From positions 1 to 63,498 of the IMG/VR virus record IMGVR_UViG_3300025430_000019: a stretch of DNA of 63,498 nucleotides; one strand, written 5' to 3'. Positions 34,069 to 53,115 of this stretch are shown in pieces. Each line of letters starts with the position of its first letter. The stretch's first letter is position 1. The position numbers and the translations under genes were made by a program. Below the pieces are notes generated by a model that was given only the letters and a program-made list of their open reading frames with translations, ran no database searches and had not been told where the DNA came from. Source of the stretch: a virus. Its lineage: Duplodnaviria > Caudoviricetes.

Positions 34069-34092
34069 CATCACTCTAGCCCAAGGAAAAAT

Positions 34093-36553: not shown

Positions 36554-37214
36554 GTGGTCTTATTCCTCATTAACTTTGTTTCAACAATGCCCACGCAAGT
36601 ATTTCCATTTGCGTGTACTCAAAGATGTAGTTGAGCCTGAGTCACCTGCCATGCTATACGGTACGCAAGTACACGAAGCTGCTGAACTATATGTCAAAGA
36701 TGGAACGAAGATACCGGAGAAGTTTGCATTCATTAAGCCAGTATTGGATACTCTTATTGCTACACCTGGTACAAAGCTTTGTGAATACAAGATGGGTTTA
36801 ACAAAGGATAAAGAACCATGTGACTTCTTTGCTGAAGATGTTTGGTTCAGAGGTGTTGCAGATTTGCTTATATTAAATGGCAGTACGGCTTATGTTGTAG
36901 ATTACAAGACAGGCAAGAGCGCACAGTACGCTGATAAGAAACAACTCGAGTTAATGGCGCTGGCTGTATTTAAACATTTCCCTGTTATAGAAAGAGTAAA
37001 AGCGGGATTAGTATTTCTTGTATCCGAGGAGTTTGTGAGGGAGCAGTACAACGTAGACATACAGGATGAGCGTTGGGCTATGTGGGATAGTGAAATTAAG
37101 CGTATTGAAGATGCAATTGAAAACGATACGTGGAATCCGAAGCAGAACTTTACTTGCAAGAAGTTTTGCCTAATTGAACATTGTGAACATAACGGAAAAG
37201 GAACTTATAGATGA
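36540..37214 (+). CDS. Cas4-like PD-(D/E)XK exonuclease
   Basis: WSYSSL..F.QCP, RGVADL, VVDYKTGK, QL, C-terminal Cys cluster. Confidence 0.8.
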   Translation: MQNVKWSYSSLTLFQQCPRKYFHLRVLKDVVEPESPAMLYGTQVHEAAELYVKDGTKIPEKFAFIKPVLDTLIATPGTKLCEYKMGLTKDKEPCDFFAEDVWFRGVADLLILNGSTAYVVDYKTGKSAQYADKKQLELMALAVFKHFPVIERVKAGLVFLVSEEFVREQYNVDIQDERWAMWDSEIKRIEDAIENDTWNPKQNFTCKKFCLIEHCEHNGKGTYR

Positions 37215-37504
37215 GTAACGTACCAAATCAAATTGTAAATTTACAAAAGATACAAGATGAAGCTGATAAACATGAAGCGTTTGTCGCTGAACAATACCAA
37301 GAAGCAATTATCAGTAACGAAGGGCTTGATGCAGGTCTAACAGTTGAAGGTCAACTTGAACGTAGATTTAAAGAATTGTTTATGCGTGTGTATAGCACAC
37401 ATATATACCCCGAGATACACAGAGCCGTTAACACAGAAGTTGCTGACGCTGCAATGAGACTTGGTAGACAACTTGGCACAATAAACAACGTACCAAAAAA
37501 ATAA
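37211..37504 (+). CDS. Hypothetical protein
   Basis: Coupled ORF. Confidence 0.6.
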   Translation: MSNVPNQIVNLQKIQDEADKHEAFVAEQYQEAIISNEGLDAGLTVEGQLERRFKELFMRVYSTHIYPEIHRAVNTEVADAAMRLGRQLGTINNVPKK

Positions 37505-37710
37505 TGATTACAGATCAAGACAAAGAATACTTACGACATCTATATGCAATGTTTGTGCTAAATGGGTTGTTGTCAAGACTTAATCCTGATGAAGTACATA
37601 CAGATAAAGTATGGCAATTTGTAGATGAAATAATCGAAACAAGCGAACCAAAACAAGCAGGCATTGCATCAATAAAAAGGAAAAAGAAAAGTGAGACCAA
37701 CACCATATGA
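37504..37710 (+). CDS. Hypothetical protein
   Basis: TAATG-coupled ORF; LRHLYAMFVLNGLL. Confidence 0.6.
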   Translation: MITDQDKEYLRHLYAMFVLNGLLSRLNPDEVHTDKVWQFVDEIIETSEPKQAGIASIKRKKKSETNTI

Positions 37711-37903
37711 CACAGGCAAAGTAAAGATCGGTATCTACTATGAGCCGAAGGTTAACTACTACAACCCCGATCAAGACTGGGTACAGAAAGCATTGCTTGG
37801 TGTAGAGACATCATGGACAACCGACATCGTAGTTATAACGGCTATGTATGCACTATTGATCTATGCGTTTATGGGACTAATGACTAGGGGGTACTATGAA
37901 TAA
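37691..37903 (+). CDS. Small membrane protein
   Basis: PYDTGKVKIG; C-terminal hydrophobic helix. Confidence 0.6.
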   Translation: MRPTPYDTGKVKIGIYYEPKVNYYNPDQDWVQKALLGVETSWTTDIVVITAMYALLIYAFMGLMTRGYYE

Positions 37904-38213
37904 AGAAGTAACACAAGAGCAGGGTGAGCAGTTAGCAAGACTTGGATGGCAAGAAATTGATTGTCCGATTTGTGGAGGTGGTGCACGAGCGTTTCCAAAG
38001 CAAGAGCAAGGTGAGCCTGTGGGTAAGTTTGCAAAGTTTACCGATGGCATTTGGCGAGAAGTCACAGACGGGTCTGCTGGAGTGCCTCTCTATACTCATT
38101 CTAAAGAATGGGTAGGGTTAACTGATGAAGATGATATTGATTGGGAAGAAGGCGACAGTTTAAGAGATTTGTTTAAAGCAATAGAGTCTAAGTTGAAGGA
38201 GAAAAACACATGA
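37896..38213 (+). CDS. Mosaic hypothetical protein ending KLKEKNT
   Basis: QEQGE twice, CPIC, WVGLTDE. Confidence 0.65.
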   Translation: MNKEVTQEQGEQLARLGWQEIDCPICGGGARAFPKQEQGEPVGKFAKFTDGIWREVTDGSAGVPLYTHSKEWVGLTDEDDIDWEEGDSLRDLFKAIESKLKEKNT

Positions 38214-38437
38214 CACCCGCAGAATTACTTCACAAAGATGCGGCAGGGTATGCAACCAACCGCAAACTTGCTTACATCGGGCTGATGAATAAAAAAGAAG
38301 TTGATCATATGACTGAAGATGCTCTTAATGGGATATGGCTTGCTCACTATGAAGGCTACAGGGAGGGTTATTGGGTTGCCACTGGTGATGTTAAATTTTC
38401 AACCGACCCCGCTAAATTAAAGAATAAGAACACATGA
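38210..38437 (+). CDS. Hypothetical protein ending KLKNKNT
   Basis: ATGA coupling. Confidence 0.65.
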   Translation: MTPAELLHKDAAGYATNRKLAYIGLMNKKEVDHMTEDALNGIWLAHYEGYREGYWVATGDVKFSTDPAKLKNKNT

Positions 38438-38571
38438 TTACATTTACATACGGACAAATTTTTTTAATCATTGGGTTAAGCATTGTTGATGGCGTTTTGC
38501 TTGGTTTTATTTTGACCACGCATTTTATTAGCAAAGAAAGAAAAGCTAAATTAAAGGATAAGAACACATGA
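38434..38571 (+). CDS. 45-aa membrane peptide ending KLKDKNT (not in ORF track)
   Basis: MITFTYGQIFLIIGLSIVDGVLLGFILTTHFISKERKAKLKDKNT. Confidence 0.65.
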   Translation: MITFTYGQIFLIIGLSIVDGVLLGFILTTHFISKERKAKLKDKNT

Positions 38572-38681
38572 ATGATGTACTGGATGCGTTGATACTTATA
38601 GCAGTACTTGGGCTGGGTGCAGTATGGATAACCGCTGTATTTTGCTATGTGTTATTTATACTGGGGGTGTATGATGACTGA
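38568..38681 (+). CDS. 37-aa membrane peptide (not in ORF track)
   Basis: MNDVLDALILIAVLGLGAVWITAVFCYVLFILGVYDD; ATGA coupling. Confidence 0.6.
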   Translation: MNDVLDALILIAVLGLGAVWITAVFCYVLFILGVYDD

Positions 38682-38865
38682 AGAAGAGATATTTGCATTA
38701 GCCATAAAAGCAGATTTATACCTAGATTCAGATGAATCAGTTATTAAATTTGGGAAACTAATAGCAGAAAAAGAACGTGAGGAGTGTGCAAAGATATGTG
38801 AAGAATCTGAGTATCCTGATGGAATTGATTTAGCTTATTTAATTCGAGCAAGGGGACAAGAATGA
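38671..38865 (+). CDS. Hypothetical protein
   Basis: MTEEEI..LA...EREECAKICE...IRARG; start 38671 or 38674. Confidence 0.6.
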   Translation: MMTEEEIFALAIKADLYLDSDESVIKFGKLIAEKEREECAKICEESEYPDGIDLAYLIRARGQE

Positions 38866-39170
38866 GTGATGGTGGAAAAGGGTCTAAGCAAAGACCAACA
38901 GATCATAATAAGTTTGCAAGTAATTTTGATTTAATTTTTAGGAGTAAACCGATGGACGAAGAAACAAGAGAGATTGACCTACAACTTGGGGATGCGCTAT
39001 CAGAATTATCTTTGTATAAAGATGCAGTAAATGAAGCTACTGTTATATGCGAAAACGTAGATCATGGACGATATGGCGATGCACTTGTACACGTACAAAA
39101 ATTCTATGCTAAATTAGAAACTATACGCCAGTACAAATCTAAACAAGTTGACATGGATGGTAGATGCTGA
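38862..39170 (+). CDS. Hypothetical protein
   Basis: MSDGGKGSKQRP..FASNFDLIF; ATGA coupling. Confidence 0.6.
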   Translation: MSDGGKGSKQRPTDHNKFASNFDLIFRSKPMDEETREIDLQLGDALSELSLYKDAVNEATVICENVDHGRYGDALVHVQKFYAKLETIRQYKSKQVDMDGRC

Positions 39171-39337
39171 TGATTGAGAAGATTAATACGTTTGAGAGTA
39201 GGCGTGGAGAAGAACGCGGTACTTTAAAAACAATCCATAGAATAATTTATCGTTGCTCAGTCTGCGGAAAAATGTTTGGCTTAAAAGAAGAAGCCGAAGT
39301 TCATAAACATAACGAAATAAGCGAAGGAGACAAATGA
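39170..39337 (+). CDS. 55-aa C2H2-like zinc-finger protein (not in ORF track)
   Basis: YRCSVCGKMFGLKEEAEVHKH; TGATG and ATGA coupling. Confidence 0.6.
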   Translation: MIEKINTFESRRGEERGTLKTIHRIIYRCSVCGKMFGLKEEAEVHKHNEISEGDK

Positions 39338-39537
39338 AATGCCCGAAATGCGACCATACGAAATCGATGGTAGTGGAGTCAAGGAAATCTCCCGACCACG
39401 AGAACTTAAGGAAACGATACTGCCTGAAATGCTATGCAACATTTCTGACAAAGGAAGTACTGCACGAAGGAAAACTAAGCCGAGCAGACAAGATACAGAC
39501 ACGCAACAACAATGGCCTTTTCCAACCACGCTTTTAA
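39334..39537 (+). CDS. NrdR-N-like zinc-ribbon protein
   Basis: MKCPKC...VVESR...RKRYCLKC..TF.T.E; AAGGAG SD. Confidence 0.7.
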   Translation: MKCPKCDHTKSMVVESRKSPDHENLRKRYCLKCYATFLTKEVLHEGKLSRADKIQTRNNNGLFQPRF

Positions 39538-39592
39538 CAAAGATAGGCAAGCCATTAAAGTTTAACCCAAGTAACCATGAGGAGGCAACATT

Positions 39593-39823
39593 TTGAACGT
39601 AGATGAAAAACAAGTGGGCGGCACACACTATAAAGATATGTCAATACAACCTTGGACTGTAATGGAAGCAGTACTTTCTATAGAGGAATTTAGAGGGTTT
39701 TTAAAAGGAAACATAATTAAGTACTCTATGCGCCAAGGACGTAAGGATAGTGACGATGGCGGCAAAGCTTTGCATTATCTGCAAAAGTTGAAAGCTATGG
39801 AGGAAAAAGATACAATGTTCTAA
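39593..39823 (+). CDS. DUF3310 (SaV-like) protein
   Basis: QVGGTHYK...GFLKGNIIKY..R.G.K...KALHYL; GAGGAGG SD, TTG start. Confidence 0.75.
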   Translation: MNVDEKQVGGTHYKDMSIQPWTVMEAVLSIEEFRGFLKGNIIKYSMRQGRKDSDDGGKALHYLQKLKAMEEKDTMF

Positions 39824-39834
39824 AGGAGAACACT

Positions 39835-40113
39835 ATGCCATACGTTAACAAACCAAGACCGTACAAAAAAGAATACGAACAACAAAAGGCTCGTAATGAA
39901 CAACCAAAACGCAACGCTAGGGCAAGAGCAAGATATAAGCTTGATAGTGAAGGGGTGGACAGGACAGGCAAGGACATCGACCATTCCATACCATTATCAA
40001 AAGGCGGCACTAACGCACCCTCAAATCTCAAGCTCAAGTCCCCAAGTGCAAACCGCAGTTTCTCCCGTAATTCAGACCACACGGTCAAAGTCAACAAACC
40101 CAAGCGAAAGTAA
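39835..40113 (+). CDS. HNH-family endonuclease-like protein
   Basis: DIDHSIPLSKGGTN..NL....SANRS; AAGGAG SD. Confidence 0.75.
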   Translation: MPYVNKPRPYKKEYEQQKARNEQPKRNARARARYKLDSEGVDRTGKDIDHSIPLSKGGTNAPSNLKLKSPSANRSFSRNSDHTVKVNKPKRK

Positions 40114-40132
40114 TTTTGCGATTACGCTTCGG

Positions 40133-40636
40133 ATGTTCTTTGAAAAGAATGGATGGGAATTTAGGGAAGAATATGAAATTAAAAAGTCTGGTAAACGCAT
40201 AGACTTTTGTGTTAAAGCTCCGTATCAAGGCGGTCATATATTCTTTGGGGTTGAATGCAAGCGGGACCTCAATGATGCAACCAATGCTACAGTATTAGCC
40301 GATCACTTTGAGCAAGCCGTAGCATATTCCCGTTCTCTTAATATGCCAGTGTTTCTTGCACCGGTCATGACCCAATATACCCAGAGTAGTTTATACGCAG
40401 GTGGACATAAGCTTCGTGCTATGTCAGCATTATCTGTATTCGGCGGTAGGTGTAACGTAGGTTTATTGGCAATTAATAGAAGCGTATGGCAAAACAAAGT
40501 TAGCGTAAACACCTATATGATTTTACGTGGCGGTTCGTTTTGGAACGAACGAGACGGATTTAACCCACAGAGAATGCAGATGGTCACATCTACAGGCTCA
40601 TCAAAAGACAGAGAAGATATAAAGATATGGCGGTAG
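40133..40636 (+). CDS. PD-(D/E)XK nuclease-fold protein (start uncertain)
   Basis: E...RIDFCV...GVECKR...Q..AY. Confidence 0.6.
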   Translation: MFFEKNGWEFREEYEIKKSGKRIDFCVKAPYQGGHIFFGVECKRDLNDATNATVLADHFEQAVAYSRSLNMPVFLAPVMTQYTQSSLYAGGHKLRAMSALSVFGGRCNVGLLAINRSVWQNKVSVNTYMILRGGSFWNERDGFNPQRMQMVTSTGSSKDREDIKIWR

Positions 40637-42006
40637 TACAAAGATATACATGGCCTGGCGTACACCCACCGATGGCACATCAGAAAACAACGGCAGATTT
40701 CTTATCAACTAATCCACGTGCGTTTTGTTTTAATGAACAAGGCACAGGCAAAACAGCATCAGCTATCTGGGCATCAGACTTTTTGCTACTAACAAAACAA
40801 ATAAGACGAGTTCTTATTATTTGCCCACTATCCATTATGGATTCAGCTTGGAGAGCAGATTTGTTTAAATTTGCTATACACCGCAAAGCTAGTATTGCAT
40901 ACGGCACAAGAACAAAACGTCAAACAATTATTAATAGTGATGCCGAATACGTCATTATTAATTACGATGGTATTGAGATTGTTGCTAGTGAAATCAAAGA
41001 GGGTAACTTTGATTTAATCATAATAGATGAAGCTAACGCATATAAGAATCCGCAAACCAAACGTTGGAAAACTCTTAATCAAATCATAACGCCTGATACT
41101 TGGCTATGGCTTATGACGGGAACACCTGCTGCTCAGAGTCCAACCGATGCGTTTGGATTAGCTAAGCTTTGTGTACCACATAAAGTACCTCGGTTCTTTG
41201 GGTCGTTTAGAGATATGACCATGAGGAATATTAGCAAGTTCAAATGGATACCGAAGCCGGAAGCTAACGACATAGTATTCAATGCGCTTCAACCCGCTAT
41301 TCGGTTTACTAAAGAAGAATGTTTAGACCTTCCTGATGTTACGCATGTATTTAGAGATGCGCCACTTACTGCCCAGCAACAGAAGTACTATTCTATTTTA
41401 AAGAAGCAGATGTTAATAACCGCCGCGGGCGAGGACATATCAGGCGCAACTGCGGCAGTAAATATGAATAAGCTATTGCAAATATCAGGCGGTGCAGTCT
41501 ATTCCGATACAGGCGAAATAATTGAGTTTGATGTTAGCAACAGGCTTAGCGTAATTGAAGAAGTCATTAACGAAGCTAGTCATAAAGTATTGATCTTTGT
41601 GCCATTCACTCACACCATTAAATTATTATCCGACCATTTAACTAGGGTAGGAATATCAAACGAAATTATTAACGGTGATGTTCCAGTCGGTCAAAGGACT
41701 ACAATATTTAAACAATTCCAAGAACAAGACAACCCAAGAGTATTAGTTATACAACCGCAAGCTGCGGCACACGGGGTTACACTTACAGCTGCTAACGTTA
41801 TCGTGTGGTATTCTCCAGTCTCCTCAACCGAAACCTATCTACAAGCTAACGCACGTATTAATAGGAAAGGTCAAAAGAACTCTATGACTATAGTACATAT
41901 TAAAGGTAGTTCGATAGAGGAGCGTATGTATAACCTGCTTCAATCTAAGCTTGATGTACATACAAAGCTAATAGATTTATATAAAAATGAATTAGAAGAT
42001 ACTTGA
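40627..42006 (+). CDS. SNF2-family helicase
   Basis: EQGTGKT, IIDEA, MTGTP, QANARINRKGQ. Confidence 0.88.
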   Translation: MAVVQRYTWPGVHPPMAHQKTTADFLSTNPRAFCFNEQGTGKTASAIWASDFLLLTKQIRRVLIICPLSIMDSAWRADLFKFAIHRKASIAYGTRTKRQTIINSDAEYVIINYDGIEIVASEIKEGNFDLIIIDEANAYKNPQTKRWKTLNQIITPDTWLWLMTGTPAAQSPTDAFGLAKLCVPHKVPRFFGSFRDMTMRNISKFKWIPKPEANDIVFNALQPAIRFTKEECLDLPDVTHVFRDAPLTAQQQKYYSILKKQMLITAAGEDISGATAAVNMNKLLQISGGAVYSDTGEIIEFDVSNRLSVIEEVINEASHKVLIFVPFTHTIKLLSDHLTRVGISNEIINGDVPVGQRTTIFKQFQEQDNPRVLVIQPQAAAHGVTLTAANVIVWYSPVSSTETYLQANARINRKGQKNSMTIVHIKGSSIEERMYNLLQSKLDVHTKLIDLYKNELEDT

Positions 42007-42030
42007 CTTAGTAAAGTTTTAGTGTACAAT
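42003..42030 (+). promoter_or_regulatory. Sigma70-type promoter
   Basis: TTGACT-16nt-TACAAT. Confidence 0.65.
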
Positions 42031-42067
42031 ACTATCTCTCGTTAACAATAATATAAAGGAAAAGCAA

Positions 42068-42466
42068 ATGGACGGAACACCATCTGTCGATAAACTTGTC
42101 GACGTTTACATAAAGATTCGTGACGCTAAGGACGCAGCTAAGAGAGCATACGAAGAAAAGAATGCTGAACTTACTGAGCAAATGGACATCATAGAATCTG
42201 AAATCCTAGAGGTATGCAAAGCTACCGGTGCGGATAGTATTAAGACTCCACACGGTCTTGCTATGCGCTCTGTTAAAACTAGATACTGGACTAATGACTG
42301 GGATAAGTTCTATCAGTTTATGATGGACTATAAAGCACCCGAACTATTAGAAAGGCGTATACACCAAACAAATATTAAACAATTTTTAGTCGATAACCCC
42401 GAAGTGTTGCCACAAGGACTCAATGTGGACAACGCATATTCCATCACCGTAAGGAGAAGTAAATGA
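42068..42466 (+). CDS. Conserved phage replication-module protein
   Basis: LVDVYIKIRD...SIKTPHG...YWTNDWDKF...LLERRI. Confidence 0.65.
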   Translation: MDGTPSVDKLVDVYIKIRDAKDAAKRAYEEKNAELTEQMDIIESEILEVCKATGADSIKTPHGLAMRSVKTRYWTNDWDKFYQFMMDYKAPELLERRIHQTNIKQFLVDNPEVLPQGLNVDNAYSITVRRSK

Positions 42467-43380
42467 GTAAATTAGCCCTGTTCGAAAACAACCTGCCCGC
42501 ATACTTAAAGAATGTTGAACTTGACGATGTAACAAAAGCATTGTCTGGTGGTGGTAATAAAATTAAACGCATTGCCCTTGGTAATAACAAGTTCATACTT
42601 AAAGTTGGTGGCGTTGAAATATCTAAGAGCGCAAATGAAAAGATGAATGTTGTAGTTGTTAATGCTGCTAAAGATGTATCACGTACATTCTATGCTGCAG
42701 CATACGACCCAAGCGCAGAAGCAACTCCACCCGATTGCTGGTCACCTGATGGACGTACTCCTGATGCTTCTATCGAGAAACCACAATGCGCCACTTGCGA
42801 TAACTGCCCACAAAACATTGAAGGTTCTGGACAAGGTAAGAGCAAAGCTTGTAGATTTAACCGTCGTATCGCAGTTGTTCTTGCAAGCGATATTGGTGGT
42901 GATGTGTATCAAATGGAGTTAAAGTCTAAGTCATTCTTTTACAGCAAGAAAGAACCAGGCGATTTAGATCACATGCCGTTTGATCAGTACGCAAACTACG
43001 TCGGTTCACAAGGTTACAACCTTAACAATCTAGTAACTGAAATGCGCTTTGACGATGACTCAACGGTTGGCAAGTTATTCTTCCGTCCTATTGAGTTCTT
43101 ATCTGAAGAACAATGGGAAATTGCTAAGAAGCAAAAAGAAACTCCTGCAGCTAAGTCAGCAATTACTATGACTGTTGCACAAATTGATGGGGTTAAAAAG
43201 TTAGCTGCGCCTGAGCTTCCAAAGCTTGAGTCTGTTGCTAAACCTGCGCCTAAAGCTGTGAAGGTAGAAGTTGAAGTCGAAGAAGTACCAGAGCCTAAAA
43301 AGCGTAAAGAAGATAAACCTGTAGTTGCACCTAAGAAAGACTTAAAGTCAATCATGGGTGATTGGACTAACGAGGAATGA
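42463..43380 (+). CDS. Putative ssDNA-binding/annealing protein
   Basis: PDCWS.DG..PD...C..CPQN..GSG...KACR; acidic C-terminal tip; between helicase and primase. Confidence 0.5.
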   Translation: MSKLALFENNLPAYLKNVELDDVTKALSGGGNKIKRIALGNNKFILKVGGVEISKSANEKMNVVVVNAAKDVSRTFYAAAYDPSAEATPPDCWSPDGRTPDASIEKPQCATCDNCPQNIEGSGQGKSKACRFNRRIAVVLASDIGGDVYQMELKSKSFFYSKKEPGDLDHMPFDQYANYVGSQGYNLNNLVTEMRFDDDSTVGKLFFRPIEFLSEEQWEIAKKQKETPAAKSAITMTVAQIDGVKKLAAPELPKLESVAKPAPKAVKVEVEVEEVPEPKKRKEDKPVVAPKKDLKSIMGDWTNEE

Positions 43381-43628
43381 ACTTACGTGGGTTCAGTTTA
43401 AGACTTGTTGAAGCCAACCAAAATGCTGACTCCAATCTAATTGGGGTTCAGCTAGGTAGGTATTGCATTGCTAAAGATATATCGGCAGTTGAAGCTGCCG
43501 CTATATTCGGCGTATCAAAGATGACAATCTATCAATGGTTCGTAGGCAATTCAAAACCCCACAAGACTAAAGCTGAAAAAATAAAAAGAGTATTGACTAA
43601 GGCTAAGTTCAATAATGGCAAAGACTGA
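43377..43628 (+). CDS. Cro-like HTH protein
   Basis: ISAVEAAAIFGVSKMTIYQWF.G...P. Confidence 0.7.
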   Translation: MNLRGFSLRLVEANQNADSNLIGVQLGRYCIAKDISAVEAAAIFGVSKMTIYQWFVGNSKPHKTKAEKIKRVLTKAKFNNGKD

Positions 43629-46437
43629 TCTACTTGCGGCAGTGCTACCTCCAGATGGAGAAGGTAATTACTGTATCGTAGGTTTAAAACCAGGCGGGTA
43701 TCCAAAGCAAGAATTTGCAGATACTTTACTGGGAGCTGGGGAGCTTATAGATGATTTATTGAGTCAGGAATTTGATGTTTATTTTGCATGTGCTAAGTAC
43801 CTTGACCCAAACGAAGGACGAACACAGAAGAATAGCGCGTACTTTAAGAGCTTTTGGATTGACGTTGATTGCGGTGTGGGTAAACCATACGAAGATCAAA
43901 CTGTTGGACTTGCAGCGTTAAAGGAATTTTCTAAATCAATAAAGCTACCGTTACCGAGCGTAGTTAATTCTGGTCGTGGCATTCATGCTTACTGGACTTT
44001 GAACAAAACTATATCTCGTGATGAATGGTTACCTGTTGCAAAAAGACTTAAAGCCCTGTGCGAAGAACGAGGTTTCGAAGCTGACCCATCACGGACCGCT
44101 GAGAGCGCATCTATTCTTAGAGTATCAGAGACTTTAAATTTTAAGCAAGATCCCCCACTTCCTGTTGAGATTTTGCATATCAGCAAGGAGTTAGATTACG
44201 ATGAGGTTAAAAGAATACTTGGTGTGTTAGTTGCGCCGAGCTATATACCTCGGAATTACAGTGAAGCTGCTAAGATAAACAGAAGTAACACTCAAAGCAG
44301 ATTCAAAACCATCATGATGAAAACCATTGATGGCAAAGGTTGCAACCAGATTAAATATTTAGTTGAAAACCAAGATGCTTTAGACGAGCCGAAGTGGAGA
44401 GCAGTGCTTAGTATCGCTACACATTGTGTAGATAGGGATACTGCAATTCATGCGGTTAGTAAGGGGCACCCCGAATATAACTACGAATCCACAGAGGAGA
44501 AGGCAAATGATATTAAAGGCCCATACACATGCGATAAGATGGAGTATTACAACCCTGGACATTGCAAAGATTGTATCAACAAAGGAAAAATCTCCAACCC
44601 GATTCAACTCGGCAATGAGATCGCTGCGGCAGAACCAGAAGTTCCGATTATTGAGGAAACTCCAGAAGGAACAAAATCATATGAAGTGCCTACCTTACCT
44701 GAACCGTATTTCAGAGGCAAGAACGGCGGCGTATATCGGCTCCCTGCGGAAGAAGATGCGAAGCCTACATTAATATATGAACATGATTTATATGTAGTTA
44801 AGTTGCTACACGACCCCAAGCGAGGGGATGCAACTTGGATTAGACTACATCTCCCTAAAGACGGCGTACGAGAATTTGCGTTGCCGTTAACTGATGCTCT
44901 TACTCCAGAAAGATTACGTGAAAAATTAGCGTTTCACGGGGTTGCTGCCCCTAAGAAGCAGATGGACGGGATTATGTATTACATCATTATGTTCGTTAAA
45001 GAACTACAACATAAGACAAAGGTAGAAATTATGAGAACTCAATTTGGTTGGACACACGACAATGCAAAGTTCATTGTCGGTGAGAAGGAAGTCGGTGCAG
45101 AAAAAGTTGTTTATAGCCCGCCGTCGCAAGCAACGGGTAGCTTAGCTAACTATATGTTGCCCGTAGGAGATTATGACGAGTGGAAAAAGATTATTAATGT
45201 TTATAACCAACAAGGCTTTGAACCACATGCGTTTGCATTCTTTACAGCATTTGGCGCCCCGTTGCTTAAACATTTAAATCTTAAAGGCGCAATTATTAAC
45301 CTGATTAATAATACATCAGGTACAGGTAAGTCGACAGTACTTAAGATGTGCAATAGTGTTTGGGGCCACCCCGAAGAACTTATGTTGCAATGGAAGGATA
45401 CACCAAACTCAATGATGAATCGGCTTGGCGTTATGAACAATTTGCCGGTCACGATTGATGAAATTACAAAATTAACAGGGGATGTATTCTCAGACTTAGC
45501 ATACAGTATTTCGCAAGGCCGCGGTAAAAACCGACTAAAGCAACATGAAAATGCTGAGCGTATTAACGATACTAAGTGGGCAACAATTGCTTTATGCAGT
45601 TCAAACTCATCGTTCTACGATAAATTATCGTCACTTAAATCTACACCAGACGGTGAGTTTATGAGGTTGATTGAGTATCGTATTGAGATGACAAATAATC
45701 TTAGCAAAGAAGAAGCCGACATTATCTTTAATGCGCTATACAACCACTACGGTCATGCAGGGGTTGAGTATGCAAAATACTTAGTCGCTAATTTAGAAAC
45801 TGCATTGGACACAGTTAAACAAGTACAACAAAAGATTGACAAGGAAGTTGGGTTTACAGGGCGTGAAAGGTTTTGGTCTGGCGTTGCTGCTTGTAATATC
45901 GCCGGTGCTCTTATGGCTAAGGATATGGGCATTATCCCTGACTTTGATATTGGCAGAGTATATCGTTGGGTGATAAAAGAGATGAAGACTATGCGTGTAG
46001 AAGTTAAAGCGCCAGTCGAAGGAACATCTAGCATGATTGGCGAGTTCATGAATGAGCATAGAGCCGCTACGCTAGTTATAAATGGTGAGGTTGATGGCAG
46101 ATCAGGCATGGAACAATTGCCGATAGTTGAGCCGAAGTTTAATGAACTCCTGGTTAGGATTGAACCTGATACTAAGAAACTATTTATCAATGCCAAACAT
46201 TTGCGGGCTTATTGCGCCAAACACCAGATCGAGTTAAAGAATACTCTAAAGGGTTTAGCATCTGATAATATTTACATAGGTCAAGTTAAGAAGCGGCTAT
46301 CAAAAGGAACAAAGCTTCAGTCTCCTGCCATTGATGCGTATGTATTTTCGCTAGACAATGAGCACTTTTTAAACGCTGACTCTTTAATTGAAACTGCTAA
46401 ATCTACTCCAGATGTTGATTCACGGACTCAACTTTGA
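43615..46437 (+). CDS. Primase-helicase (RepB-like primase plus DUF927-type helicase)
   Basis: WIDVD, VNSGRGIHAYW, ILR; QFGW, SGTGKST Walker A, TIDE. Confidence 0.8.
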   Translation: MAKTDLLAAVLPPDGEGNYCIVGLKPGGYPKQEFADTLLGAGELIDDLLSQEFDVYFACAKYLDPNEGRTQKNSAYFKSFWIDVDCGVGKPYEDQTVGLAALKEFSKSIKLPLPSVVNSGRGIHAYWTLNKTISRDEWLPVAKRLKALCEERGFEADPSRTAESASILRVSETLNFKQDPPLPVEILHISKELDYDEVKRILGVLVAPSYIPRNYSEAAKINRSNTQSRFKTIMMKTIDGKGCNQIKYLVENQDALDEPKWRAVLSIATHCVDRDTAIHAVSKGHPEYNYESTEEKANDIKGPYTCDKMEYYNPGHCKDCINKGKISNPIQLGNEIAAAEPEVPIIEETPEGTKSYEVPTLPEPYFRGKNGGVYRLPAEEDAKPTLIYEHDLYVVKLLHDPKRGDATWIRLHLPKDGVREFALPLTDALTPERLREKLAFHGVAAPKKQMDGIMYYIIMFVKELQHKTKVEIMRTQFGWTHDNAKFIVGEKEVGAEKVVYSPPSQATGSLANYMLPVGDYDEWKKIINVYNQQGFEPHAFAFFTAFGAPLLKHLNLKGAIINLINNTSGTGKSTVLKMCNSVWGHPEELMLQWKDTPNSMMNRLGVMNNLPVTIDEITKLTGDVFSDLAYSISQGRGKNRLKQHENAERINDTKWATIALCSSNSSFYDKLSSLKSTPDGEFMRLIEYRIEMTNNLSKEEADIIFNALYNHYGHAGVEYAKYLVANLETALDTVKQVQQKIDKEVGFTGRERFWSGVAACNIAGALMAKDMGIIPDFDIGRVYRWVIKEMKTMRVEVKAPVEGTSSMIGEFMNEHRAATLVINGEVDGRSGMEQLPIVEPKFNELLVRIEPDTKKLFINAKHLRAYCAKHQIELKNTLKGLASDNIYIGQVKKRLSKGTKLQSPAIDAYVFSLDNEHFLNADSLIETAKSTPDVDSRTQL

Positions 46438-46609
46438 TATTAATTGGTCTAAATTTATAGTAGGCGCATCGTTCTTTATCCCTTGTTTGGATACGGACGG
46501 TGCAGCTATGCAGGTTAAACGGACCGCAAAGAGGTTACGCTATAAGATAAAAACACAAGTTGTTGTAGAAAAAGGCATACAAGGATTGCGAATATGGCGC
46601 ATTAAGTAG
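46412..46609 (+). CDS. Small conserved protein
   Basis: INWSKF..GASFFIPCLD...GLRIWR. Confidence 0.65.
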   Translation: MLIHGLNFDINWSKFIVGASFFIPCLDTDGAAMQVKRTAKRLRYKIKTQVVVEKGIQGLRIWRIK

Positions 46610-46621
46610 TATGATTGCACC

Positions 46622-46688
46622 TGCGATTCATTTCGCTTTTCCTTGGCAAGTTGCCATTTCGCCCTCACCCTCGTGGTGGGGGTTTTTT
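46622..46688 (+). ncRNA. Putative anti-Shine-Dalgarno small RNA
   Basis: Upstream TTGCGA-18nt-TATGAT; contains CATTTCGCTTTTCCTTGG complementary to several phage initiation regions; ends in terminator. Confidence 0.5.
46661..46688 (+). terminator. Intrinsic terminator at convergence of the two arms
   Basis: GCCCTCACC-CTCGT-GGTGGGGGT then TTTTT. Confidence 0.8.
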
Positions 46689-49600
46689 ATTCTTCATTTG
46701 CATAATTACGCCATCCTTCAAGTTGGGGTATCATTCTTTTATCTATACCCATACCACCTGTGATGTTAGAAAGCGCTCTATTTTTATAGCGAGTTTTAAT
46801 AGAATTTGTTAACGCATCTGGTGTAATGGCTTTGCCCGGATTAGTTTGGCTGAAATGCACGATCTTAGCAATGACTTTATCCATCATATATGTATCACCA
46901 GAATCTAAAGCAATAAAGAAGGCATTTAACAAATCATTATGTCTAGCAATAATTTCTTGTTCTGCATTTTTCATTTCAATATTTGCTTTTTGTGCTTGCG
47001 CGATTTTATCGGGCGTAAAACCAAGCATCTGTGCCAAAGCAAGGCGAGCAGGAACTTCTTCCATTAAAGTGTCACCTTTCATAGTAAGAGCTTGACCTTC
47101 TGAAAGATAGCGTAATCCAGTCATGACGTTTTTAATAGCAGATGGCATAGCGGTTTCAATAGCACGTTCTGTATGGCCTTGATTAAAACGATCTAATGCT
47201 TCAGCATAAGTTACTAACGCGCCAGCAGATGGGCCAAGCAAACTCATCATAGTATTTTGTAACGTAGTAAGGTCATCCTTACCTTTACGTACATCTTGGA
47301 ACCATAAGTCAGGTAAATTAGTGCTCATACGGTCTGCAAAGTTCAGTCCGCTGACTGTAGACAACGCGCCACGAGATAGTATTTCACCCGTAAACCCACC
47401 TAAATGTTTAAAGCACCAGTTCTTAAACCAATTTTCGGCATCAAACGGTTCGTCTGAATCACCAAATGCTGCATGAAAAGCTGAAGCAATGCCAGAGAAT
47501 ATAAACCAAAATGGTAAACCCGTCATGCCAGATGTAAGAAACGCCATGCCCATCATACCTAAGAACTGATCACGTGCTTCACGTTTAATACTTTCAAGTT
47601 CTTTAATCTTAGCTTTCATCAATTCTTCTTTATGCGGCGAGTTACGCATCTCTCGCTCATATGCAATAAGTTCAGCTTGCATACCATCGCCCAAAGATTT
47701 TTGAAGTGTTCTAAACATTAGCACAGTCATCTGTTGCGGATACATTTTAAATTGCAACAAAATATTACGGTAGTTACCGCGGAAATATCTTGGTTTATTG
47801 GTAGTGTTGTAGTTAAACAAAGTCTTTTTAACTAACGCATCGGCTTCTTGTATGGCTGTTTGGTAAGCTTGTTCTGCGGTATAACGTTGTTTACCATCAT
47901 GAGTTTTAGCATCTAACGCTTTATTATAGGCTAATTCAAATGTTGCCATAAACGTTGTCTCACGCATGTATTTTTCAGATGCGTGAAACGGTAAACTTGC
48001 GTAGTACATTATTTTGTTCCATCGACCAGTGTATTGGTTTGATGGTTTTTCACCGATTTGCGCAGCTTCATGCGATAGCGTAACATCAATAGTTCCGCGT
48101 CTAACGCCGTCTTGGTATACGTCGGCATAAGTCTTACCTATAGAATTACCGTTTTTATCTTTAACATCCATGCCTTCCATATTGGCTCTGGCTAGTGATA
48201 AAAACTCATATCTGCCTGATGTTTCATTTACAAATCCTGTTCCACCAAGCATACGATTAAACTTTGCAAACGCACTCGCTGTATTTTTTAACCCATACCT
48301 AGCATTTGCAGCAGGCGCCCATACGCCTCCAACACCAAGCAAGTTAATCATAAACGATGCTGGCGCAGTTAAGAAGTTTATAAAGCCAAATTGATTTAAC
48401 GCAGTGACAATTCCACTTTGTTTTGGTGGGTTAAGAATAGCAGTCTTAAGGTTTAACTCAAGTTCATGTACGTAATCTCTATACTTTAATGCCTCTCTAG
48501 CAGGCAGGCTTTTTAAACGTACTTGTGCTGAACGAAGGTCGGTGAATAGCTGTGGTAAATGCTCAAACCTAGAACGCTGATATGCCATACGTAAACGAGA
48601 CACTTCAAATGCACGAAGCATATCAATACTTGCACCAGGTATATTTTCACGGTGCATAAACATCTTACGAATACTTTCGTTTGGCATTAGCTCTAAATAC
48701 ATTTGGCCGAGTTGATCTTTAACTTGGTCGCGTAACGCCCCAATAGGGTCAGCTAATACTTTAGCATCTGAGCTACCTAAAATATCTTCCGTAGATTTAT
48801 CAACTAGAGATTTTAAACTTTCTAAATGCGCCCAGTCACTTAAATTACTATTAAGAATTTCGCTGAAATTATTTCCTGCTTGAATATCGCCACTTTCTTC
48901 AACTTGCCTAAGTACTTCTTCATCTGATGTGCCTTTTATAAAAGTACTTTTACCTTTTTCCTTTTTGATTAAGCGCTCTAATTCTTGTTCATAGGCATCA
49001 TCACGAGCACCGGCAGTTTCAAATTGCTGGAAAGTTTTACTTTTGCCTTTGCCTGTTTGCAACCAGAATTCGCCAAAACGTTTAAGCGGAAAGTAAATTT
49101 TAAGCGCGTCTTTAGCTATATTGTTTTTTAACTTAACTAATTCATCGTTAATTTCTTTTTCTGAAAGACCTTCACTTTTTAGTCTAGCATGAGTACGTTC
49201 TGCCTGGATTGCTATGTACTCATCCATACGTCTTTTATAAAAATCACGCACTTCACGATAAATTTTTAACGCTGTTCTACCGTCTTCAGTGCCGTCAACC
49301 ATTTTGTTCCAGGCATCTTTAAACCGTTTATCAACGTTGTGCCAGTTTGCGGCATCGTGTGCAGGGCCAGTAGTATCGGCTTCAATTTGATCAATCGTAG
49401 CATTAAGCATTACTTCATGCAACTGTTGAGCTTTATCAGGATTACTTTGAATTAATTGACTCCAAAGTTTAATTGCAGTATCGCCTTCCGCAAGTATTTT
49501 ATTGCGGGTATAAATCATTGCATCAACTTCTTTAACGTAATCTTTGAACTGTGGGATATTATCTCCAACAAGATCTGATAATTGGTCTAGTGTTAAAGCA

Positions 49601-52600
49601 CCAAGCAAAGCTCTGCGGTATTCTTCACGAACACTAGCTAAGTTAGAAACAAATTTACGTTTATTAACTTTGCTCCAAGGAGTATGGCTTCTTATTAAAT
49701 CTCCAATCGTGCCAAGCATACCTGTACGCTCAGCTGTATTAGCTCTAAATTTACCTTTTTTAGCCGCTATACTTTTTGCTATTTTTGGTTGTTTTTCGTC
49801 TTCAAACTTAGAAGTATTATCTAAAGATATAGAGTTTTGCGGTATAGCTGTACCCGGATTAAATGTATTAACGTTAGTTGTGCTTTCTTCTCTAGCAGAA
49901 AATAGTACATCTGTATTAGCCATAGTTTGGAACAATACATTATCTACACCAATTAATTTAGATATGTATTGAATAAACTTAGACCAAGTAGATTGGTTAG
50001 TTTTGTTTTCAGCATAAAGACTACGAAGTATTTTTTGAAAATCTCTATTGCTAAAAGCTTCAGCTATAAATTCATGTAAATTAAGAAGTCCATACTGTTC
50101 TGCATGTGGAGTTCCTTTAAGTTGTTTAACTGTGTTATGGTACAACGCTACTAAATTGTAATAAGCTCTACGTTGTTCTGGGTTTAACTTTTCAGGGTGC
50201 AACATTAAATCTGATACAGCAGCATGTGTAGACTCGTGCATTAGCACATAATTTGTTGTAACACCGCCATTTAAAGAATTATTAAGGGCAATAGACCCTT
50301 CGTAATAAAACCCAGCTGCAGCTAAAGACCCAACAGCTTCGTCTAATGATTTGTATGCAACTTTCGCTTGTTCCATCAAGCTTTTATTAGGCACTCTAAT
50401 TCTGCCGTCCATTAATCTGTTATAAGCTTCGGCCTTCAACAAAATTGGATTTATACTTGGGTCAAAGTTAGCTTCATTAAAATAACGATCCCATATGTGG
50501 TGGTAGTTAAGTTGCAGATAGGCTTCTACTTGGTTTCGTTGTACAGCCGTATGCGATAAAAAGTTTTCTAATACTTTATTAGTTATGTCATAGCCAATAT
50601 TTACAGTAAAGTTTAACCCAAGTAAACGATCAGCCAATTTGCTAAAGTACTCACCTCCGTAACGCACTATGCCTTTTAATGCGCCTCTAAAATCATTTGA
50701 ACGAATAGCATCATCAACTACTGGATGAACTGTAGCCTCTAACGTATTAATATCAGCATTTTGAACTTTAGGGCTACTAGACTTACTTTTCTTTTCTTTT
50801 TTATCTAAGCCTTTCTTTAGCTGCTGTTCTGTCTTACCCATTGCAATACGTGCTGGGTGGTTAACAGGCAGTTGAGGTTTTAATTCTTGCAGCTTTTTAG
50901 TAACCTCAGCTTTAGCTTCACGATCTATATTTTCGCCCGATCCAATAGCAACCGCTTGGTTAAACAAGTCATGGTATTGTTGAACAATAGGGTTGTTTTG
51001 TAAGTCGGCAGGGAGTTCTTCTATTCTTGGTGTTTGGCTTATGTGGCGAAGCTTTTCTTCTGTGCTTGACATAGGCTCAAGTTTTTTAGCTTCTTGTTCA
51101 GTTTCAACTTGTTCTGGCGTTGGCTCACCAAGTTCTTCTTCGTCTTGCTTACGCTGTTCTTCTTCAAGTTGAGATTGCTCTAATAACTTATCAGCTATTT
51201 CTTCATCAGTTGGTTCTTGATTTTGATTAAGTTCTTGGTCTAATTCATCTTGTAATGCAGCTTGTTCTTCTTCGCTAGGCGTTTCTTTGGTTTGTTCTTG
51301 GTTTGGCACACGAACCATGTAATCTACACGATCTTCAAACCCATTACGTGCATACCAGTCTTTTAGTTGTTCTTGATTAAGTCCGCCTAAAGAAGCATCG
51401 GGCTGCGCCGCAGGTACAAGAACTAAAGTTTTATCGTTAGTATCAGCCCAATTAGTAATTGCGCTTAATAATTTAGTACCCGCACCTTTATTTCTATTAG
51501 CTACATCCATGCCTGTTATCATGGTAGCGCCAATAAGATCATCAGATAAATCATTATCTTCGTCTAGCACTTTAAACCCGGCAGTAGCAAGTGGTTCTTG
51601 CCCTTTTGTAACTGAAGGTAGATACGCTCCTCTATCATTTACTCTAGCTGGTTTGGATTCAAAGGTTTCTTGTTCTTGCGTTTCTTTTGGTTGCAATGCC
51701 CCAACTTGTTCTGTATTTAGTTCAGCAGTGCTTGGTTGCGTTCCTCTTCCAGTTTGATCAGCAGGCTGTTCACTTCCCACCACATTACTTTGGGCATTTG
51801 TTTCAAGTCCTGGCTCAGTTCCTCGTTGGGAAGTAATCCCCTCAGATGTAGGAATGCCTGGCTGAGTAACTCCGGTGTTATCTCCAGTATTTCCTGCTGC
51901 ATTTTGTTCCTCCTGTATTTTATTACGGGCTTCAATATGTTTATCAATGTAATTGCTTAACTCTTCTTTAGTTGGTTCTTTGCCGTACTGTGCAACAAAA
52001 TCAGGTTTAACAATATCAGCAATCTGATTGCGTATTCTATTATTTGCAAGGTATCCTCGTATTCCACCAAGACCCGACATAGGAATGCCTTGTACAAATG
52101 TACCGACAACAGTCTCAATGTACTCCTTCATGGCATCAAGATCGGCGGTATCAAGACCTGCACCGAAACGTTCTGCCCATTGTTGTGCTAGCTCAGGTGG
52201 TATTTCTTTAGCTGTTGAAGCTGCGTATACTTTAGCAACGTCATATAACAAATTTTTACCTGCCGCGTCTAAACCACTTAACGCACCAAGACCAAATCTT
52301 TCTGAAAGAAAATCGGCGCCTGCATGGATTGCCATTGCTGGCGCAAGTTTAGTAAAGTTAAGTTCTTGGGCTATGTCTGCATTAGGATTTTTATTTTGTA
52401 TTTCTTCAATAGCACGGGAACCTGGTTCGCCAACACCGTGGAATGCAGCTTGCGTTGCCATACCAAGCATACTGCCTTTACTAAGCATAAGCTTTTTAGC
52501 GGAGTCAGCTACAAACTTAATGCCAGCTTTTGTGCCTTCTTTTTCAGCAACTTCTTCGGCTAACTTTTTAACACCTTGTTTAACTAATTGTTTTTCAGCA

Positions 52601-53115
52601 ATTCCAGCTAAACCTCCAGGTATTGCGCCAACACCACCAAAGAATGCTCCAAGCCCTGCGCCAACACCCGCTGACAATAAACTTTCACCAGCGTTAGCAA
52701 CACCTTGTCCCACCATATAAGGCAGGTACTCTGTTATAAAACCGTTGACGCTATCATTCCATGCAACTTTAGCTTGTAAAGGTTCTTCTTCTTTTTTAGC
52801 TTCCTCCATACCCTTTAAGCCATTAGCAATCATGTCGTGGCTAAAGTCACCTTCACCTGCTAATTTTTGTATGCCAGCTCCAGTTATAACTTTGGCAGCA
52901 TTCCATAGTTCTTTAGTTTGTGGGGCATAAGCTTTAATACCACGAACAAATGCGCTACTATCATCTTGATCGGCTACGGCTGCAGGGTGAACATTATCAA
53001 CAGTAGGCTTAGTATCCCAAGGAGCAGGACCGGCCATGCCACTTGGGTGTTGTTCCCAAGGCGCAACTTCATCTTCTTTAGTTGCTGCTTGTTCCCACGG
53101 CGCAAGTTGAGCCAT
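46687..53115 (-). CDS. Large polyvalent internal virion/ejection protein (GNAT-like and zincin-like domains)
   Basis: RNKGAGTKLL...WYARNGF; VLMHESTHAA...EFIAEAFSN; 2142 aa at end of late arm. Confidence 0.7.
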   Translation of the reverse strand: MAQLAPWEQAATKEDEVAPWEQHPSGMAGPAPWDTKPTVDNVHPAAVADQDDSSAFVRGIKAYAPQTKELWNAAKVITGAGIQKLAGEGDFSHDMIANGLKGMEEAKKEEEPLQAKVAWNDSVNGFITEYLPYMVGQGVANAGESLLSAGVGAGLGAFFGGVGAIPGGLAGIAEKQLVKQGVKKLAEEVAEKEGTKAGIKFVADSAKKLMLSKGSMLGMATQAAFHGVGEPGSRAIEEIQNKNPNADIAQELNFTKLAPAMAIHAGADFLSERFGLGALSGLDAAGKNLLYDVAKVYAASTAKEIPPELAQQWAERFGAGLDTADLDAMKEYIETVVGTFVQGIPMSGLGGIRGYLANNRIRNQIADIVKPDFVAQYGKEPTKEELSNYIDKHIEARNKIQEEQNAAGNTGDNTGVTQPGIPTSEGITSQRGTEPGLETNAQSNVVGSEQPADQTGRGTQPSTAELNTEQVGALQPKETQEQETFESKPARVNDRGAYLPSVTKGQEPLATAGFKVLDEDNDLSDDLIGATMITGMDVANRNKGAGTKLLSAITNWADTNDKTLVLVPAAQPDASLGGLNQEQLKDWYARNGFEDRVDYMVRVPNQEQTKETPSEEEQAALQDELDQELNQNQEPTDEEIADKLLEQSQLEEEQRKQDEEELGEPTPEQVETEQEAKKLEPMSSTEEKLRHISQTPRIEELPADLQNNPIVQQYHDLFNQAVAIGSGENIDREAKAEVTKKLQELKPQLPVNHPARIAMGKTEQQLKKGLDKKEKKSKSSSPKVQNADINTLEATVHPVVDDAIRSNDFRGALKGIVRYGGEYFSKLADRLLGLNFTVNIGYDITNKVLENFLSHTAVQRNQVEAYLQLNYHHIWDRYFNEANFDPSINPILLKAEAYNRLMDGRIRVPNKSLMEQAKVAYKSLDEAVGSLAAAGFYYEGSIALNNSLNGGVTTNYVLMHESTHAAVSDLMLHPEKLNPEQRRAYYNLVALYHNTVKQLKGTPHAEQYGLLNLHEFIAEAFSNRDFQKILRSLYAENKTNQSTWSKFIQYISKLIGVDNVLFQTMANTDVLFSAREESTTNVNTFNPGTAIPQNSISLDNTSKFEDEKQPKIAKSIAAKKGKFRANTAERTGMLGTIGDLIRSHTPWSKVNKRKFVSNLASVREEYRRALLGALTLDQLSDLVGDNIPQFKDYVKEVDAMIYTRNKILAEGDTAIKLWSQLIQSNPDKAQQLHEVMLNATIDQIEADTTGPAHDAANWHNVDKRFKDAWNKMVDGTEDGRTALKIYREVRDFYKRRMDEYIAIQAERTHARLKSEGLSEKEINDELVKLKNNIAKDALKIYFPLKRFGEFWLQTGKGKSKTFQQFETAGARDDAYEQELERLIKKEKGKSTFIKGTSDEEVLRQVEESGDIQAGNNFSEILNSNLSDWAHLESLKSLVDKSTEDILGSSDAKVLADPIGALRDQVKDQLGQMYLELMPNESIRKMFMHRENIPGASIDMLRAFEVSRLRMAYQRSRFEHLPQLFTDLRSAQVRLKSLPAREALKYRDYVHELELNLKTAILNPPKQSGIVTALNQFGFINFLTAPASFMINLLGVGGVWAPAANARYGLKNTASAFAKFNRMLGGTGFVNETSGRYEFLSLARANMEGMDVKDKNGNSIGKTYADVYQDGVRRGTIDVTLSHEAAQIGEKPSNQYTGRWNKIMYYASLPFHASEKYMRETTFMATFELAYNKALDAKTHDGKQRYTAEQAYQTAIQEADALVKKTLFNYNTTNKPRYFRGNYRNILLQFKMYPQQMTVLMFRTLQKSLGDGMQAELIAYEREMRNSPHKEELMKAKIKELESIKREARDQFLGMMGMAFLTSGMTGLPFWFIFSGIASAFHAAFGDSDEPFDAENWFKNWCFKHLGGFTGEILSRGALSTVSGLNFADRMSTNLPDLWFQDVRKGKDDLTTLQNTMMSLLGPSAGALVTYAEALDRFNQGHTERAIETAMPSAIKNVMTGLRYLSEGQALTMKGDTLMEEVPARLALAQMLGFTPDKIAQAQKANIEMKNAEQEIIARHNDLLNAFFIALDSGDTYMMDKVIAKIVHFSQTNPGKAITPDALTNSIKTRYKNRALSNITGGMGIDKRMIPQLEGWRNYANEE

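Follow-up and report, generated by a model that had tools for sequence, protein, structure and literature searches.

Does the 3' end of the replication operon of an uncultured tailed phage hold the gene of a small RNA (sRNA), and if so, with which messages would its product pair? The question is raised by positions 46586 to 46690 of IMG/VR virus record IMGVR_UViG_3300025430_000019, a tailed-phage record complete at 63,498 bases, which was analysed as a whole and is referred to below as the window. At this place a promoter-like sequence that abuts a stop codon is followed by a terminator, and an initial annotation of the sequence had read the intervening stretch as an sRNA antisense to the Shine-Dalgarno (SD) sequence and AUG of multiple early and middle genes. 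We found that the unit is conserved in relatives, that its hairpin co-varies, and that its seed co-varies with the translation initiation regions of two phage genes, here called 42068 and 33736 after their first positions. The element probably encodes an sRNA that is transcribed from its own promoter within the 3' end of the operon and would repress these two genes by base pairing; that it is transcribed, acts in trans and represses its targets is what we infer from these sequence comparisons.

Layout of the RNA unit and its conservation in relatives

The plus-strand genes 42068-42466, 42463-43380, 43377-43628, 43615-46437 and 46412-46609 overlap one another and make up a replication operon that runs from gene 42068 through a primase-helicase gene to a small open reading frame (ORF) ending at 46609. 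Given that the genes overlap and that no terminator-like site besides 46661-46683 was found on the plus strand between 42000 and 46700, the sRNA element was taken as the 3' end of this operon. On recheck, the promoter, terminator, seed, matches, second tract and fold that had been described for this place were correct in all coordinates and words (Table 1). The promoter-like sequence TTGCGA-18-TATGAT (46586-46615) is of sigma-70-like type with a 9/12 match. The 5' end of the predicted sRNA was placed 6-7 nt past the -10 hexamer and its 3' end within the U-run. A 73-nt stretch folds with an energy of -26 kcal/mol (z = -4.37; 0/200 shuffles as stable) into, in this order, a 4-bp hairpin with a UUCAUU loop, an unpaired UUUUCCU, a second small hairpin and the terminator, whose stem at 46661-46683 has nine pairs, six of them G-C, followed by a T-run. 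The seed at 46627-46646 is TTCATTTCGCTTTTCCTTGG, with the reverse complement CCAAGGAAAAGCGAAATGAA, and among 48 lineage clusters the seed is 75% unpaired versus 53% for the whole RNA body. A second tract, GCCATTTCGC (46653-62), complements GCGAGATGGC (33731-40). When the whole window was searched against Rfam 15, 0 matches reached the gathering threshold, the best local score being that of anti-hemB (23.1 bits versus a threshold of 49.5).

With the primase protein as query, 37 loci were found in viral contigs at 53-71% identity, and a metagenome scan with the same protein gave 17 loci and no new lineage of note. The sequence extends beyond the primase in 25 of the viral loci, and the unit is present in 21 of these 25. 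In the remaining loci (L019, L021, L023 and L024) a terminator directly follows the stop codon and the TAnnAT box is absent. The leucine codon within the -35 hexamer is TTG in all 21 loci with the RNA body and CTG or CTT in all four without it, a pattern that is confounded by coding constraint and G+C content. The 21 loci represent 16 distinct sequences, and in 16/16 the TAnnAT box lies at bases 4-9 from the stop codon and is followed by about six variable bases, a lineage-specific hairpin, a CU-rich word (UUCCUUU, UCCUUUC, CUCCUC and similar) and a terminator. In the corresponding alignment (A1) the columns T4, A5, A8 and T9 are invariant and the 6 nt that follow are variable.

A degenerate pattern combining the ORF end and the box identified at least 116 further stretches, which gave 89 distinct variants with enough sequence. 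Among the matches listed, a terminator was present in 89/89 of these variants, a CU-rich run in 88/89 and a 5' hairpin beginning at most 4 nt from the predicted start in 84/89, and the median predicted length of the sRNA was 70 nt. Some relatives (L031, L026 and the L006 group) carry two to three CUCCU-type words. Pairing was counted in a plain MAFFT alignment of 58 sequences over 12 pairs of the 5' hairpin and the terminator. Paired cells made up 89.0%, compared with 82.3% in shuffles (0/500 as high) and 31.6-48.2% when the partners were slid; cells changed on both sides numbered 60 versus 22.0 in shuffles (0/500 reached this number), and four of the six pairs of the 5' hairpin showed such both-sided changes. 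About one fifth of the hairpin cells were unpaired, in part from misaligned rows. The plus-strand promoter-to-terminator unit proposed in the initial annotation is, as judged from these alignments, conserved in relatives, and a conserved secondary structure with an accessible seed was found, as is characteristic of trans-acting base-pairing sRNAs. Well over a hundred contigs carry this unnamed family; they belong to uncultured phages, most of them from freshwater.

A minus-strand ORF of nine codons (MNRRCNHTT) had been named as an alternative product of the same place. This ORF is not conserved across the variants, and a small protein was rejected: a start codon follows the SD-like word in 45/85 variants (ATG in 33/85), the reading frames are 1-42 codons long and the peptides are unrelated.

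Co-variation of the seed with two translation initiation regions

Ten relatives' contigs were taken whole, their genes were called by a simple script and orthologs were mapped; the script is not a trained gene finder and some called starts are wrong. Target scans across genomes were made as exact complements to the RNA body on both strands. Plain duplexfold on whole RNA bodies was noisy: even the G006 leader scored -28 kcal/mol, although G006 is without the sRNA. Net cofold energies and exact complements were therefore preferred. For the co-variation test, sRNAs were swapped among lineages and the longest exact complement of cognate pairs was compared with that of swapped pairs by permutation. 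Drift predicts no excess in this comparison, and therefore a better match of cognate than of swapped pairs means that both sides change together.

Target 1 is the initiation region of gene 42068, with which the sRNA-terminated operon begins; it lies 4.6 kb upstream of the sRNA on the same strand. Positions 42056-42070 read AAGGAAAAGCAAATG, of which the matched part is AAGGAAAAGC(-)AAATG, and the net cofold gain at this leader is -11.3 kcal/mol. Of the ten contigs scanned, G001, G003 and G004 have their longest exact complement genome-wide (12 nt) in the initiation region of the 42068 ortholog, and in G008 (12 nt) and G005 (10 nt) this region is tied for first place; the matched word differs between lineages (Table 1). 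The predicted duplexes extend from the SD sequence through the AUG to codons 2-3 and comprise 15-24 pairs. For nine lineages, the observed values were reached by 12 (duplex energy), 22 (net cofold) and 2 (longest complement) of 362,880 permutations. A larger set consisted of 94 pairs, 73 of them distinct, in 48 clusters, with L121 dropped for a mis-called start codon. Here the cognate mean was 8.96 nt versus 6.46 nt for swapped pairs, and against an observed sum of 430 the highest value among the permutations was 357 (0/200,000 as high); the same was true of the AAGGA-type lineages alone (34 clusters, 0/200,000 as high). The cognate sRNA ranked first for 19/48 of the initiation regions, and the match had a median span of -12 to -5 relative to the A of the start codon. 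For the control ortholog groups 42463, 43615, 43377, 34754 and 46412 in the same loci there was no cognate excess.

Target 2 is the initiation region of gene 33736-34068, whose product matches Pfam PF01870 (E = 1.6e-5), and lies 12.9 kb upstream of the sRNA, again on the same strand. The sequence at 33724-33738, AGGAAAAGCGAGATG, is the sole non-self match to the seed 15-mer at two mismatches or fewer (two matches including self versus 0.19 expected). Among the 89 initiation regions of the window the 33736 leader is the best, at a net -14.8 kcal/mol and with a duplex of 16 bp including one G-U pair. The ortholog is likewise the best initiation region in G001 (-17.8 kcal/mol), where the duplex of 6 + 15 bp is formed by a wholly different sequence (CCGAAACCAAAUGGC plus AAGGAA) that pairs with the loop and arm of an entirely different 5' hairpin. 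Exact complements of 10-12 nt were present in L151, L099, L128 and L134. In the 14 lineages with a leader the cognate value was 8.5 nt versus 5.88 nt for swapped pairs, and 0/200,000 permutations were as high. This set was formed after dropping L106 and L156 (leaderless) and L090 (same lineage as G001), and never took in G002 (leaderless) or L092 (same as G001). Different parts of the RNA serve the two targets in L128 and G001.

In a check set beforehand, the two best targets predicted in the initial annotation (33724 and 42056) turned out to be the two co-varying sites (0/200,000 each). They had also been described as lying in the first genes after the 33673 and 42003 promoters, and both do follow conserved sigma-70-like promoters: the TATACT box followed by (c/a/t)tgtca upstream of target 2 is kept in relatives, and TGTATAAT-type boxes are found at the matching place upstream of target 1 in distant relatives. 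The co-variation of the seed with the initiation regions of the 42068 and 33736 orthologs indicates that there is selection on the predicted pairing.

Table 1. Positions of the predicted sRNA, its targets and associated elements in the window, with the leader words matched at target 1 in different lineages.
Feature	Position	Strand	Remarks
-35-like hexamer TTGCGA	46586-46591	+	within last codons (G-L-R) of ORF 46412-46609
-10-like hexamer TATGAT	46610-46615	+	immediately 3' of TAG stop codon
Predicted sRNA, ~67-69 nt	46622-46690	+	from fold and conserved layout
5' hairpin GCGA-UUCAUU-UCGC	46623-46636	+	predicted fold
Seed	46627-46646	+	hairpin loop, 3' arm, unpaired UUUUCCU linker and UGG; complements SD-to-AUG of targets
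Second AUUUCGC word GCCAUUUCGC	46653-46662	+	alternative pairing site for GCGAGAUGGC at 33731-40; read from sequence
Rho-independent terminator	46661-46690	+	common to operon mRNA and sRNA
Target 1: SD, AUG and first codons of gene 42068-42466 (132 aa)	42056-42075	+	complement, co-variation
Promoter-like TTGACT-16-TACAAT	42003-42030	+	10/12 match; upstream of target 1
Target 2: SD, AUG and second codon of gene 33736-34068 (110 aa, Hjc-like nuclease)	33724-33741	+	complement, co-variation
Promoter-like TTGCAA-17-TATACT	33673-33701	+	upstream of target 2
Small ORF, 65 aa	46412-46609	+	conserved; overlaps primase end by 26 nt in another frame
Candidate extra site CCAAGGAAAA	34081-34090	+	before gene 34093; similar sites at 27528-36 and 30088-96
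Matched leader word, window			AAGGAAAAGC(-)AAATG
Matched leader word, G001			TGAAAGGAAGTA
Matched leader word, G003/G004			AAGGAAAAACTT
Matched leader word, G005			ACCAAGAGGA
Matched leader word, G008			TTAACAAGGAAA

Proposed mechanism and alternative explanations

In the mechanism that we propose, transcription would start about 7 nt past the -10 box abutting the stop codon and yield an RNA of about 68 nt that reaches to the operon terminator. The linker and the neighbouring hairpin arm of this RNA would pair over 15-24 bp with the SD sequence, start codon and first codons of two mRNAs, namely those of the first cistron of its own operon (42068) and of the Hjc-like nuclease gene (33736), each being the first gene past a sigma-70-like promoter. 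The duplex would block 30S binding and lower translation of both cistrons, and translational coupling would probably lower the genes downstream of both as well. The outcome may be a negative feedback on the replication module or its timed shut-off.

Several observations weigh against this mechanism. The bare promoter match is at chance level (6 sites in the scanned region versus 6.3 expected) and its -35 hexamer lies inside coding sequence; the pattern-anchored variants were selected by the -10 box, and conservation of the box is testable in the 16 primase-anchored variants only. For target 1, the GGAG-type lineages (11 clusters) gave a weak result (3356/200,000 permutations), and in the L010-L014 type, L026, L133 and L116 the exact complement is 5-8 nt and extends barely beyond the SD sequence. 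For target 2, the complements are only 5-7 nt in L121, L153, L108, L133, L119, L100 and L102, and the 33736 ortholog is leaderless in G002, L106 and L156; sRNA control by leader pairing is therefore excluded in these three. The lineage clusters used in the permutations are not fully independent, and an excess of G-U-compatible mismatches, which would mark RNA pairing as opposed to a DNA repeat, was only 67 compatible versus 53 incompatible transitions (p = 0.24). Finally, the 20 sequencing runs in which the stretch was found are all registered as DNA and come from freshwater metagenomes.

The co-variation is blind to whether pairing occurs in cis or in trans. The terminator is common to the element and the operon, and no terminator-like site was found on the plus strand between 33610 and 43700 or, with the 42000-46700 scan added, anywhere from 33610 to 46660, so both targets could share one transcript with the element. 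The 3' untranslated region (UTR) of the operon might then fold back on the initiation region or regions of the same mRNA with no separate sRNA being made. We consider this rather unlikely, given that a plain 3' UTR explains neither the invariant T, A, A and T of the -10 box after the stop codon nor the constant spacing of 6-7 nt from the box to the 5' hairpin, nor the loss of the box together with the RNA body in four relatives. That the conserved box is lost jointly with the RNA body favours a separate transcript, as far as can be judged from the loci compared. By analogy, intramolecular pairing was excluded by experiment for the operon-derived sRNA OppZ (PMC7398697). Another possibility, to which we give a low probability, is that the RNA is real and has its main role elsewhere, for example by acting on mRNAs of the host or by sequestering one of its RNA-binding proteins, with the pairing to phage leaders being secondary. 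The target scan covered phage genomes only, and the two to three CUCCU-type words of the L031, L026 and L006 group relatives exceed the need of two targets; against this stands the finding that seed and flanks follow two phage leaders by lineage, which requires selection on these pairings.

An inverted DNA repeat is indistinguishable in sequence from RNA complementarity, and the three sites all lie 5-35 nt downstream of promoter-like boxes. They might thus be operators, in either orientation and downstream of three promoters, for a phage DNA-binding protein such as the helix-turn-helix protein encoded by 43377-43628, and the G-U asymmetry given above leaves the RNA and DNA readings undistinguished. 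Such a shared operator at the DNA level is unlikely, and highly so, since the matched words are non-palindromic and always take in the SD sequence, and often the AUG, at a fixed register, since the sRNA side bears the RNA features of a promoter, compensated hairpins and a terminator, and since L128 and G001 use different parts of the RNA for the two targets. The least probable explanation, with a probability close to nil, is that of an ordinary terminator region whose matches to ribosome-binding sites arose by chance, since any CU-rich stretch complements an SD sequence. It is true that 7-mers of the AAGGAAA type are trivial and that the promoter and terminator counts are at chance level in a local scan, but swapping sRNAs that each hold an anti-SD core removes the excess (0/200,000 for each target), the unit is kept in every variant examined, and chance is contradicted already by the nine-lineage, 48-cluster and 14-lineage permutation tests.

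The repression of genes 42068 and 33736 by pairing had been set, in the initial annotation, within a larger scheme of a multi-target translational repressor whose target genes use an AGGAAA-type SD sequence as an address. Part of this stood, in that two leaders co-vary with the seed, and the wider set lacks a significant excess. The word CCAAGGAAA is found five times in the window (16794, 27528, 30088, 34081 and self) versus 0.66 expected, with 0/100 shuffles reaching five, and three of these sites lie 2-5 nt upstream of the ATGs of plus-strand genes. There was no co-variation support for the extra sites at 34081, 27528 and 30088, the orthologs in G001 and G002 mismatching their own sRNAs. With the two main targets left aside, the excess of sites of 9 nt or longer was not significant (11/120 permutations reached the observed value), nor was that at 10 nt (25/120), and the SD type as regulon address was thus not borne out. 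Initiation regions holding at least 8 nt numbered 6/38 on the plus strand and 0/51 on the minus strand of the window (Fisher p = 0.005), a contrast that is confounded by SD type and by a repeated leader cassette. It remains a tentative idea, with odds clearly against it, that the sRNA reads a lineage-specific "address" of 9-12 nt in the extended SD contexts of many early and middle leaders and shuts the set off. The address words would then be CCAAGGAAA in the window, CGAAAGGAA in G002 and CCAAGAGGA in G005, with one co-evolving 3'-end sRNA per lineage.

The cassette in question is marked by the word AACT(T/A)TGTC(C/T), which recurs 15-25 nt before the SD sequence of the plus-strand genes 25507, 26302, 26995, 27541, 30102 and 31710 and is present at 33640-33650 as well, its version in G002 being GAATGTTCC(A)A. 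It may be a phage-specific promoter or leader cassette. The CCAAGGAAA sites at 27528 and 30088 fall inside it, and the cassette may explain them.

Genome setting and relation to known systems

The minus strand of the window encodes the terminase, portal and head genes, and a plus-strand block at 24095-46609 encodes a DNA polymerase, an SNF2-type helicase and a DUF927 primase-helicase. The sRNA locus is the junction of this block with a convergent minus-strand gene whose stop is at 46687. The protein of that gene (46687-53115, 2142 aa) matches, at residues ~1836-2131, a PHROG annotated as DarB-like antirestriction (E = 1.1e-53). Compared with window positions 46688-46720, L064 has a different 3' end of the convergent minus-strand gene, with a primase that is 99% identical and an identical sRNA, and this comparison suggests that recombination has left a joint at the terminator. 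The 65-aa ORF upstream of the sRNA had no match in Pfam or PHROG. For the 132-aa protein of target 1, a PDB sequence search gave chance-level matches only, and in Pfam DUF7307 reached 17 bits, below the cut-off of 27. Many leaders of 42068 orthologs (e.g. L017, L012 and L139), that of the window excepted, have a 4-bp hairpin 12-20 nt upstream of the SD sequence, with a variable stem and a conserved CA(A/T)AGA loop.

In G002, L106 and L156 the nuclease gene starts 6 nt past the TATACT box (TATACTttgtcaATG), apparently without an SD sequence. Between the gene end at 33458 and the 33673 promoter lies a second sRNA-like unit (33465-33615, plus strand), with a TG-extended -10 box (TGATACAAT), CCUCC/CUCCUC words and a terminator at 33589-33609, and G001 and G002 have an analogous unit with AAUUUCCUUUCAC. 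The fold of the window unit has a z of -1.18, and no complement of at least 9 nt to any called initiation region was found for it.

The closest match to the primase protein in the phage collection is that of Pseudomonas phage Rollin, at 30.3% identity, and there was therefore no annotated relative for comparison; a DNA match in the same collection was obtained neither by distant blastn (601 bases) nor by megablast (10 kb). The relative L206, whose primase is 69% identical, lies on a contig of 16.7 kb that is binned in a metagenome-assembled genome of Candidatus Nanopelagicales; its locus has 43.6% G+C and its sRNA a compensated GGUGC/GCACC hairpin. The binning is a weak hint of a freshwater actinobacterial host. 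If the host is such a bacterium, the address system considered above might be independent of Hfq.

Host sRNAs such as DapZ and MicL are made from 3' ends, with a promoter inside the upstream coding region, and act on unlinked host mRNAs. The predicted phage sRNA resembles them in having a -35-like hexamer in the upstream ORF, a terminator common with the mRNA (the only plus-strand terminator-like site between 42000 and 46700) and a seed upstream of that terminator, and differs in being phage-borne and in matching its own operon. In the Gram-positive RsaE/RoxS and RNAIII, which are host-encoded and have conserved seeds and broad regulons, unpaired C/U-rich words complement the SD sequence. The unpaired pyrimidine-rich words in loops and linkers, two to three in some relatives, are similar here, whereas the seed flanks vary and follow two specific leaders.

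In Vibrio cholerae, the sRNAs OppZ and CarZ derive from the 3' ends of operons and downregulate a cistron of the operon from which they come (PMC7398697). The predicted phage sRNA shares with them the location at the 3' end of a polycistronic mRNA, the common terminator and the predicted pairing at the start of a cistron in its own operon, which was found computationally at the 42068 leader. OppZ lacks a promoter and is cleaved from the mRNA by RNase E; it acts on the second cistron, depends on Hfq and leads to termination by Rho (PMC7398697). Unlike OppZ, the predicted phage sRNA has a conserved -10 box, suggesting independent transcription, would target the first cistron plus a second, unlinked leader (33736), and is carried by a phage genome. 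The conserved box points to an origin of the 5' end that differs from release by RNase E.

The phage sRNAs VpdS of VP882, PreS of lambda, sar of P22, and OOP and aQ of lambda control genes of the phage or of its host (PMC12197685). Of these, sar, OOP and aQ arise as cis-antisense RNAs from the strand opposite to their target, sar preventing the start of ant translation, while VpdS and PreS depend on Hfq and have largely host genes as targets (PMC12197685). The present sRNA resembles all of these in being a phage-encoded small RNA whose base pairing would tune phage development, and it differs from sar, OOP and aQ in that its targets share its strand and lie 4.6 and 12.9 kb from it. A cis-antisense RNA of the sar or OOP type was ruled out for the same reason, the targets being on the strand of the sRNA itself. 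In the Rfam search of the whole window there was no relation to VpdS, PreS, sar, OOP or aQ, and no sequence relation to them was found either. No description of this sRNA family was found in the literature searched, the supplements of papers, which may hold sRNA lists, being outside that search. From the sequence comparisons, the family is a new one of a known kind, that of base-pairing sRNAs predicted to occlude ribosome-binding sites.

Few phage-encoded sRNAs with known targets have been described, mostly from temperate model phages (PMC12197685). Here two targets are legible from sequence alone because seed and target change together. If lineage-specific address words were indeed read in many leaders, they would constitute a phage-private, evolvable code for translation shut-off. 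The predicted repression of genes 42068 and 33736 would place a phage replication operon under RNA-based feedback, and the family provides a natural, many-fold replicated compensatory-mutation series for sRNA-target recognition and a ready test set for target-prediction tools.

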